Origin: Candidatus Kerfeldbacteria bacterium CG_4_10_14_0_8_um_filter_42_10
Lineage (GTDB): Bacteria > Patescibacteriota > Patescibacteriia > UM-FILTER-42-10
NCBI GenBank assembly: GCA_002784945.1
Contig: PFMD01000025.1
Location: 1 to 63,963 of the forward strand
Direction of reading: 5' to 3'
Length of the DNA stretch: 63,963 nt
Shown here: positions 48,482 to 48,700 of the stretch, in pieces
How positions within the stretch are numbered: position 1 is the stretch's first letter
Layout: the number at the start of each line of letters is the position of its first letter
Program-made: the position numbers and the translations under genes
Notes under the pieces: model-generated
Database searches by the model: none
The model's input: only the letters and a program-made list of their open reading frames with translations
What the model was told of the DNA's origin: nothing

Positions 48482-48700
48482 TTAATGGGCATCCTCCGGA
48501 GGCAGATTTTCCGCAGGAATTACTCCGGCTGCTTCGCAACAGTAGCTGGCCGCCTTCTCTTCTTTTCCGGGAGCGCGTTTCGGATCAAACGCGTTTTCCG
48601 GCGGAAGCTTATCGGTCTCAATTGCTCCTGCGGCTTCGCAGCAATAGCTTGCGGATCCACTGTCACCCTTGAGGATGCGCCTGGGGTCTGTGTTGCCCAT
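48482..48700 (-). CDS. Candidate RiPP precursor peptide with two tandem core modules
   Basis: 72 aa, GGAGG SD 7 nt upstream. ASYCCEAAG occurs twice (48626-48652 and 48524-48550) with 5 synonymous and 0 non-synonymous codon differences. Each copy is followed by (A/V)I...LPPE(N/D)A. Confidence 0.7.
   Translation of the reverse strand: MGNTDPRRILKGDSGSASYCCEAAGAIETDKLPPENAFDPKRAPGKEEKAASYCCEAAGVIPAENLPPEDAH

Follow-up and report, generated by a model that had tools for sequence, protein, structure and literature searches.

The 63,963-nt contig PFMD01000025.1 of Candidatus Kerfeldbacteria bacterium CG_4_10_14_0_8_um_filter_42_10, analysed here over its full length (the window), carries on its minus strand a small open reading frame (ORF) that likely encodes the precursor peptide of a tyrS-linked, five-gene radical S-adenosylmethionine (rSAM)/SPASM cassette, the peptide being presumably crosslinked, tailored and trimmed into two near-identical products. 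The minus-strand order of the genes is tyrS, peptide gene, gene of an HExxH protein, gene of a 470-aa rSAM/SPASM enzyme (rSAM470) and gene of a second rSAM enzyme (rSAM2). These genes, together with the elements of the peptide gene, are as follows.

48482..48700, minus strand: precursor peptide gene, a 72-aa ATG ORF (MGNTDPRRILKGDSGSASYCCEAAGAIETDKLPPENAFDPKRAPGKEEKAASYCCEAAGVIPAENLPPEDAH) made of two tandem leader-core-follower units
48587..48688, minus strand: unit 1, residues 5-38, DPRRILKGDSG-SASYCCEAAGAIETDKLPPENAF, gapless against unit 2 and fitting the consensus of 50 intact units
48485..48586, minus strand: unit 2, residues 39-72, DPKRAPGKEEK-AASYCCEAAGVIPAENLPPEDAH, gapless against unit 1 and fitting the same unit consensus
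48708..48712, minus strand: ribosome-binding site GGAGG (CCTCC on the plus strand), 7 nt 5' of the peptide ATG
48720..50078, minus strand: tyrS, first gene of the operon, longest ORF 452 aa, with its stop 19 nt before the peptide ATG
47670..48407, minus strand: 245-aa HExxH protein with HETSHF and, 26 residues on, an LSE motif, both invariant in the alignment
46145..47557, minus strand: rSAM470, with CxxxCxxC (YCDLCCRYC) and a C-terminal SPASM cysteine pattern
45150..46169, minus strand: rSAM2, about 339 aa from a conserved MxEIR start, matching Pfam Radical_SAM with 31 bits

A search of 5.8 billion proteins returned 25 homologues of the peptide in public metagenomes (42-61% identity, E 1e-20 to 1e-3), none of which contains a Pfam domain. 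Scanning the GTDB genomes and JGI metagenomes for ASYCC[EG]AA revealed one locus in a GTDB metagenome-assembled genome (MAG) and 11 loci in the JGI metagenomes; the motif is present in only one of 185,579 GTDB species genomes, and that MAG is labelled Gammaproteobacteria. The hosts of the cassette, whose loci have a GC content of 32-56%, are uncultured and most probably bacteria of the candidate phyla radiation (CPR)/Patescibacteria. The peptide itself matched no Pfam or NCBIfam model even at E 0.1, precursor models included, and its family is unannotated in the libraries searched.

A reading made earlier from the sequence of this stretch alone (the sequence-only reading) had noted four overlapping ORFs in different frames and had placed the signature of selection in the peptide frame only. 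The four sizeable ORFs are there (112 and 80 aa on the plus strand, 72 and 73 aa on the minus strand), and the GGAGG that it placed 7 nt ahead of the ATG was confirmed on the minus strand. Comparison with the relatives demonstrated that the peptide frame is without stops in all 13 distinct homologous loci, which no other frame manages; the 112-, 80- and 73-aa ORFs were rejected as the gene, since stops interrupt them in homologous loci. Between lineages the synonymous sites are saturated (proportion of synonymous differences, pS, 0.73-0.91), with a proportion of non-synonymous differences, pN, of 0.23-0.30; the sole unsaturated pair, L018/L019, gives a ratio of non-synonymous to synonymous substitution rates (dN/dS) of 0.15. 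Conservation is confined to the peptide frame, as had been proposed.

The same reading had found the nonamer ASYCCEAAG encoded twice, with five synonymous and no non-synonymous differences. The reverse complements of 48626-48652 and 48524-48550 indeed read GCA AGC TAT TGC TGC GAA GCC GCA GGA and GCC AGC TAC TGT TGC GAA GCA GCC GGA, respectively, and all its statements on the sequence of 48482-48700 were correct on re-reading; the real repeat, of 34 aa, is larger than the nonamer. Residues 5-38 and 39-72 align without gaps and are identical at 18 of 34 positions, 11 of these residues being encoded by different codons and seven by the same ones, while nucleotide identity between the two units is 58 of 102. 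The repeat is also kept at the amino-acid level in the relatives, where variability would have spoken against it. As judged from these comparisons, the two-unit peptide is an old tandem duplication whose protein is under purifying selection. That the ORF is a genuine gene, and a conserved one, follows from its 25 homologues, its being the sole open frame, the low dN/dS, the synonymous saturation and the identical residues retained through different codons.

The consensus derived from 50 distinct intact units is [ML][KR]RxL-x5-SASYCCEAAxT[LV]xAxxLPxE[DN]A[FY]. Conserved in all 50 are the S, Y, C and C of the core and the L, P and E of LPxE, whereas the Glu following the two cysteines is conserved in 94%, P0007 having Lys there in its two units. 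Within the leader motif, Arg (position -10) is conserved in 84%, and [KR]RxL stands 8-11 residues ahead of the core. In terms of sequence, every unit is a complete module with its own basic leader motif, SASYCCEAA-x-T core and LPxE-x-A-F/Y follower. Natural single-unit homologues exist (L008, 46 aa; L025, 38 aa; L017, 40 aa; L027, 68 aa; L028, 78 aa); in P0016, P0022 and P0023 the first unit is decayed or deleted with the second intact, and in the L001 group unit 1 lacks SYCC (having SLQVIC instead), again beside an intact unit 2. The sequence-only reading had left the choice between two similar products and one bicyclic product. The existence of single-unit forms and of forms with a decayed first unit, and the presence of the motifs in each unit, indicate independent units and favour two independent copies of one product; the bicyclic alternative found no support.

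The most divergent of the single-unit precursors (L028 7424..7660) has a long N-terminal extension with CPHCGK, half a zinc-ribbon-like motif, and is encoded downstream of a gene resembling daptide-type methyltransferases (81.5 bits, cut-off 175).

AlphaFold2 (AF2), run on the peptide with a 26-sequence alignment, produced no fold (predicted local distance difference test, pLDDT, 51.6; predicted template modelling score, pTM, 0.16), and the peptide is thus predicted to be disordered, as expected of the precursor of a peptide made on the ribosome and then post-translationally modified (RiPP) and not of a metal-binding mini-protein. This prediction bears on the earlier suggestion that the adjacent cysteines form a metal-binding site, as a folded metal-binding mini-protein is unlikely. 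It bears equally on the idea that the ORF encodes a small unmodified Cys protein, for example a metal-binding 'Zn-finger', with the rSAM genes acting on something else. The name 'uncharacterized Zn finger protein' given by JGI to P0009 and the four cysteines of the two-unit form would suit such a protein, but the single-unit forms carry just two cysteines, which are adjacent, and the peptide co-occurs strictly with an rSAM/SPASM enzyme of the peptide-maturase type; we regard this idea as highly improbable. The view of the ORF as a precursor-type peptide, already taken in the sequence-only reading, is borne out by its position two genes 5' of an rSAM/SPASM peptide maturase in every locus. That reading had covered neither the surrounding cassette nor its invariant linkage to tyrS.

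To map the extent of the cassette, all fetched loci were searched by tblastn with the five proteins of the window. Every locus of sufficient length has the peptide, HExxH and rSAM470 genes, although of the HExxH gene the L001 group retains just a pseudogene-like remnant; nine lineages possess rSAM2, which the L001 group lacks. The peptide and rSAM470 genes share one orientation in the window and throughout the related loci. In L001 (4985..5575), as also in L002, L003, L021, L022 and L031, the HExxH gene consists of frame-shifted remnants, with rSAM470 intact at 66% identity, which gives the appearance of a cassette that has decayed in part or is reduced to a minimum.

The rSAM470 enzyme, which is 47-66% identical across related loci, shows the features of the rSAM/SPASM class, that is CxxxCxxC plus a cysteine pattern aligning with the SPASM domain of CteB, and its best family matches are without exception SPASM maturases. 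The top curated family in NCBIfam is the FibroRumin maturase TIGR04136 (212.6 bits, cut-off 400, residues 16-463), to which the approximately 105 N-terminal residues of rSAM470 align exclusively; the L008 orthologue scores 241 bits, again below 400. Further matches are the PapB model NF047865 (142.7 bits, cut-off 340, E 1.6e-41), the QhpD-type model (128.2 bits, cut-off 453, E 3.3e-37) and the SCIFF maturase TIGR03974 (119.1 bits, cut-off 425, E 2.2e-34), and DynA is also among the NCBIfam matches. The best solved structure is that of CteB (5WGG, E 2.5e-28), which aligns over the rSAM core and the SPASM domain, the SPASM cysteines included, and Pfam SPASM is reported on orthologous rSAM470 fragments in L004. 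By sequence similarity, rSAM470 is a peptide maturase near the thioether-forming families and within no curated family. Since the nearest enzyme families (CteB, PapB, QhpD, CefB) are all Cys-thioether formers, Cys thioether chemistry is, by analogy, probable here as well, which would suit the thioether donor/acceptor pairs suggested in the sequence-only reading.

The second rSAM enzyme carries CPGTCFHC as its CxxxCxxC motif (CxxTCxHC conserved), and the alignment of orthologues reveals two further strongly conserved motifs, LSADEHHAGSLYR and GWWN..R.FCGG. It has only weak generic matches to MoaA, NrdG, viperin and QueE in NCBIfam and PDB, and in sequence terms it is a novel subfamily. Extra rSAM/SPASM genes are located between the HExxH and rSAM470 genes in L004 (3321..4777), L008 (10622..11479) and L025 (2506..4451), with similarity to NirJ2/AhbD (138 bits) and to 'metalloenzyme maturase'/spiro-SPASM proteins (about 90 bits), so that cassettes of the L004/L008/L025 type contain up to four rSAM genes.

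The 245-aa protein has no Pfam or NCBIfam match, and its profile retrieved nothing from the PDB sequences. Its AF2 model (pLDDT 84.6) places HETSH and LSE on predicted helices; a Foldseek search of the PDB with this model gave no significant match (best E 0.38), the weak top matches being the HExxH zincins IrrE/PprI, aminopeptidase N and ArdC. The protein is part of a larger family without annotation, comprising 594 representative clusters, in which HExxHF…LSE is kept. Its distant relatives gave nothing in Pfam either, and the genomic context of one of them amounts to a 1.4-kb contig. Judging from its motifs, the 245-aa protein is a putative zincin-type zinc metallopeptidase that would act as leader or linker peptidase.

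From these components a four-step maturation may be proposed, in which we infer both the crosslink chemistry and the role of the peptidase. The CteB/PapB-like rSAM/SPASM enzyme would first bind the disordered peptide, and the two invariant cysteines of each unit would then serve as donors of radical crosslinks, most likely thioether bonds whose other end is an alpha carbon or a carbon of a side chain. Candidate acceptors are the invariant Glu of LPxE and the Glu after the two cysteines, the former, conserved in 100% of units, being the better candidate than the latter with its 94%. The second rSAM enzyme would add a further modification; some lineages have one or two extra rSAM/SPASM enzymes. 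Finally, the HExxH protein would cut the units apart and trim them, so that one small modified peptide results twice in essentially identical form. No transporter, C39 peptidase, double-glycine motif or acetyltransferase-type immunity gene was found among the cassette genes. The lack of an exporter, together with a core that stays the same in widely differing genomes, points to a product that probably works intracellularly on some conserved partner; the presumed operonic co-transcription of tyrS in every lineage suggests that this partner or process is connected with the tyrosyl-tRNA synthetase (TyrRS).

The absence of a transporter and the invariance of the core also bear on whether the product is a peptide-derived cofactor or small molecule, similar to pyrroloquinoline quinone (PQQ) or mycofactocin, in which crosslinked Tyr/Cys/Glu would be excised to serve an intracellular redox or metal-binding function, with tyrS as an expression vehicle. 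Antimicrobial cores are hypervariable, unlike PqqA and MftA, and the SYCC core is, like the latter two, invariant, here over hosts of 32-56% GC. The pqq and mft gene sets comprise a peptide, an rSAM/SPASM enzyme, a peptidase and an extra enzyme, which the present gene set parallels, and NirJ/AhbD-like and 'metalloenzyme maturase'-like rSAM genes accompany it in some lineages. However, no client dehydrogenase is conserved beside the cassette, and the PqqE and MftC models are outside the 25 best NCBIfam matches of rSAM470, their matches being confined to accessory rSAM genes (in L008, L004 and L025) with scores far short of the cut-offs. The sporadic distribution (1 of 185,579 species genomes) would be odd for a cofactor, and duplication into two units is unusual for cofactor precursors. 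On balance, a cofactor is an unlikely product.

The tyrS gene adjoins the cassette in all 12 distinct lineages with flanking sequence; the genes outside the cassette vary between lineages. It is located upstream of the peptide in 10 lineages (the window, L001/L031, L004, L008, L015, L018, L019, L025, L027 and L028); the gap measures 0-40 nt in the CPR-type lineages, and L027 and L028 have one of about 200-320 nt. The arrangement in L016/L024 and L017 is instead peptide, HExxH, rSAM, rSAM2, tyrS, tyrS. The TyrRS of L027 and L028 belongs to another clade (35-38% identity, 348 bits to TIGR00234), with rSAM enzymes that are 47-55% identical. The window gene is a genuine tyrS (TIGR00234 252 bits, cut-off 113.8; Pfam tRNA-synt_1b; HIGH and KQSKS motifs in the alignment), for which gene callers disagree on the start (452 or 405 aa), the alternative one at 49937 (405 aa) being used on identical contigs. 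Relatives of its TyrRS that have an organism name are labelled with the CPR/Patescibacteria names Komeilibacteria, Saccharimonadales, Nealsonbacteria and Uhrbacteria, apart from one labelled Omnitrophota and one labelled Pacearchaeota archaeon; the assignment of the hosts is based on these names and on the insertion in the 23S rRNA gene of the window. Some of the closest relatives of the TyrRS, with lengths of 442-490 aa, have a putative Lys/Ser/Asn-rich N-terminal extension of about 45 residues, which in the window corresponds to 49938..50078 on the minus strand, is partly conserved with L001 and also occurs at the tyrS 5' end of L018.

It was considered whether the cassette simply follows every CPR tyrS, and this was rejected: a 64%-identical TyrRS (L029, on a 487-kb Komeilibacteria contig) is without it, and L030 has an unrelated anSME-like rSAM gene. 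In L030, a CPR contig (7925..10146), a tyrS whose product is 67-68% identical is followed by a 700-nt gap without obvious ORF, an anSME-like rSAM/SPASM gene (26% identical to rSAM470) and an antisense gene for a 290-aa HEFFH protein, with no SYCC peptide; this may be a different tyrS-adjacent rSAM system. Survival of the linkage through rearrangement, a change of TyrRS clade, change of flanks and host GC contents of 32-56%, for a cassette that is rare and missing at L029, argues that it is more than an inherited neighbourhood.

These properties of the linkage are also what an exported product has to be reconciled with. In this alternative, the peptide would be a signal or antimicrobial of the ranthipeptide/sactipeptide type, having tyrS as its neighbour by historical accident and a transporter encoded elsewhere. 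Products of this kind are made by the nearest enzyme families, secreted RiPPs commonly have tandem multi-unit precursors, and, as most lineages share a CPR-type TyrRS, much of the linkage could go back to one ancestral insertion. Yet the linkage is kept with the TyrRS of another clade (L027, L028), in the rearranged order of the L016 type and with differing flanks, the cassette lacks a transporter, C39 peptidase and double-glycine motif, and the core is invariant instead of diversified. An exported product consequently appears doubtful.

In three loci the tyrS downstream of the cassette is present in tandem (L016 3854..6484; L017 3925..6555; L024 4364..6956). Horizontal co-transfer as the source of these copies was rejected, as they are sister clades, which makes the duplication lineage-specific. 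Deviations of TyrRS were counted over the 108 columns that at least 97% of 120 relatives have in common. The cassette-proximal copy of L016, L017 and L024 deviates at 11-14 of the conserved columns and the distal copy at 4-7. The changes in the proximal copy are I104M, Y172F, P179A, L201I, M205A/S, I226V, G255A, D262H, W318R, F323I and L364T/V, of which P179A is beside the tyrosine-binding motif YxxLQGYD. The possibility that the linked tyrS is a special paralogue was rejected for the single-copy lineages (0-1 deviations) and holds for the duplicated lineage alone.

Genes for aminoacyl-tRNA synthetases (aaRS) occur inside the indolmycin and albomycin clusters. Such a precedent raises the possibility of a TyrRS-targeting RiPP, in which a Tyr-derived warhead made from S-Y-C-C would inhibit the TyrRS of a competitor or host and the linked tyrS would be the resistant or over-expressed target. 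Consistent with this are the adjoining tyrS in 12 lineages and two TyrRS clades, the duplication in L016, L017 and L024 with 11-14 substitutions including P179A in the proximal copy, the invariant Tyr of the core, and the precedent of the tiarins, in whose clusters enriched aaRS genes mark the target and the core residue predicts the aaRS that is targeted (bioRxiv 10.64898/2025.12.02.691738). On the other hand, the single linked TyrRS resemble ordinary CPR TyrRS (0-1 deviations), no evidence of a second tyrS in these genomes emerged, none being present in the 64-kb window and no whole genome having been scanned for one, the cassette is without exporter, uptake-mimicking carrier or acetyltransferase-type immunity gene, and the enzyme types of tiarins and microcin C (YcaO, MccB) are not among its genes. 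Such a targeting role is rather doubtful. A somewhat broader proposal, to which we likewise give a low probability, is a TyrRS-coupled system in which the modified SYCC peptide acts on or with TyrRS, either as a Tyr-mimicking inhibitor travelling with its target or immunity gene, or as a regulatory or partner peptide. It would explain the co-operonic tyrS in every lineage, the duplicated and diverged tyrS, and the invariant core without exporter.

Several points weigh against the reading of the ORF as the precursor of a five-gene, tyrS-linked maturation system. The rSAM470 enzyme is below the curated cut-off of every characterised family, so that their chemistry is not transferable to it with confidence, and Pfam detected no PqqD/RRE domain in it. 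Neither in structure nor in sequence does the HExxH protein significantly match a proven peptidase. Peptide and rSAM470 are kept in the L001 group despite its loss of intact HExxH and rSAM2 genes, which means that not all parts of the cassette are indispensable. The single linked TyrRS, with deviations at 0-1 of the 108 columns (0 in the window copy), are housekeeping-like, and the linkage itself could be inherited synteny combined with operon inertia. Furthermore, the product and its crosslinks are deduced from genes and models, and so would be any connection with TyrRS. That the ORF is a real gene built of two modular units, and that it belongs to a cassette of this composition adjoining tyrS, is established by the comparisons described above, and the reading of the ORF as the precursor of this cassette is the one preferred.

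Promoter and terminator calls in the region were consensus matches only, and three of them fall within the operon or at its end.

50012..50041, minus strand: promoter-like site TTGACA-18-TAAAAT (11/12) from the consensus scan, 5' of the 405-aa tyrS start and within the long-ORF extension
47650..47671, minus strand: GC-rich 9-bp stem-loop followed by a T-run, from the consensus scan, at the HExxH gene stop and ahead of the rSAM genes
45083..45114, minus strand: terminator-like 13-bp hairpin with a T-run at the operon end, from the consensus scan

Promoter-like sites in the region are not more numerous than expected from shuffled sequence. The stem-loop at 47650..47671 may be a partial terminator, which would keep the expression of tyrS, peptide and peptidase high and that of the rSAM genes low. 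The cassettes of L016/L024 and L017 have a perfect promoter to themselves, TTGACA-17-TATAAT, which lies downstream of a tRNA gene. An RNA element, T-box or riboswitch near tyrS and the peptide was considered and rejected, as Rfam gave only a 23S fragment and two tRNAs in the window.

Elsewhere in the window, the 3' part of a 23S rRNA gene (1..1220, plus strand) has its 384 model positions (2542-2925) spread over 1220 nt, with an insertion of roughly 800 nt that contains an ORF (224..760) for a 178-aa LAGLIDADG homing endonuclease (PF00961, 2.8e-21). Insertions of the LAGLIDADG kind in rRNA are typical of CPR bacteria, and this one supports the assignment of the host to them. The genes dnaN and dnaA (54650..57375, minus strand) are about 6 kb from the cassette, which positions the window near the chromosomal replication origin. 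A glycogen neighbourhood on the plus strand (33109..34608, 36166..37545 and 42550..45000), with two glycogen/starch-synthase-like genes, a GH57 gene and a galT-like gene, is unrelated to the cassette.

If the preferred reading is correct, the rSAM/SPASM RiPPs would gain three families that carry no annotation, one of precursors and two of enzymes (the HExxH protein and the second rSAM enzyme), and the adjacent Cys-Cys core would be a new substrate context for thioether rSAM chemistry, of interest for peptide engineering. CPR bacteria are usually deemed poor in specialised metabolism, and genome-reduced, uncultured CPR-like bacteria would here invest two to four rSAM genes in one peptide. The sole surprising element of the system is its coupling to tyrS, which would offer a testable link of an rSAM-modified peptide with an aaRS as target, immunity determinant or partner. 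Should the TyrRS-coupled proposal hold, an rSAM-made RiPP would for the first time be tied to an aaRS, and the system would be a rare trait of specialised metabolism in CPR bacteria; the searchable literature yielded no paper that ties TyrRS or tyrS to rSAM RiPPs or deals with ranthipeptides in CPR.

Among known systems, the SCIFF (CteA-CteB) and PapA-PapB pairs resemble the cassette in having a short Cys-containing precursor beside an rSAM/SPASM enzyme of roughly 450-470 aa and, as in the present peptide, acidic residues or Thr near the cysteines as possible acceptors. The core differs, being SYCC with two adjacent cysteines, whereas SCIFF has six cysteines in 45 residues and PapA has CX3D repeats. 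With 119.1 bits against 425 and two cysteines per unit, the cassette has neither the maturase score nor the precursor pattern of SCIFF, and with 142.7 bits against 340 and no CX3D in its peptide it is likewise separate from the PapB ranthipeptides. It is further distinguished from both by its two fused full units, the conserved HExxH protein and novel rSAM enzyme, the tyrS co-operon and the CPR-like hosts. FibroRumin, for which no paper was found in the searchable literature, provides the top curated maturase family and a full-length alignment that includes the N-terminal domain, but the maturase is under the 400-bit cut-off and none of the precursor models in NCBIfam or Pfam fits the peptide.

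QhpD is similar in being an rSAM/SPASM enzyme that links Cys to carbons of Glu or Asp, with conserved Cys and Glu in its substrates, and the substrate of the QhpD system functions as an enzyme component, either inside the cell or in the periplasm. That substrate is QhpC, the gamma-subunit of quinohemoprotein amine dehydrogenase, and the cassette is without QhpA, QhpB and QhpC and without the Trp for the cysteine tryptophylquinone (CTQ) cofactor. The PQQ and mycofactocin systems share with the cassette an invariant small precursor, an rSAM/SPASM enzyme, a peptidase, an extra tailoring enzyme, the lack of an exporter and conserved Tyr and Glu; they differ in that the cassette genes, when tested, included no homologues of PqqB/C/D or MftB/D/E/F, and in that the precursor is duplicated. 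With the tiarins/trifolitoxin and microcin C, the cassette has in common an aaRS gene linked to a RiPP-type cassette, a core holding the cognate Tyr, and one lineage with a duplicated and diverged aaRS gene, but it uses rSAM enzymes and not YcaO/nitroreductase or MccB, and its linked TyrRS is usually of the housekeeping type. Judged by these comparisons, the precursor, the HExxH protein and the second rSAM enzyme are in no curated family, and the cassette works like an rSAM/SPASM RiPP system of the ranthipeptide/sactipeptide type that falls below the thresholds of FibroRumin, SCIFF, PapB and QhpD.

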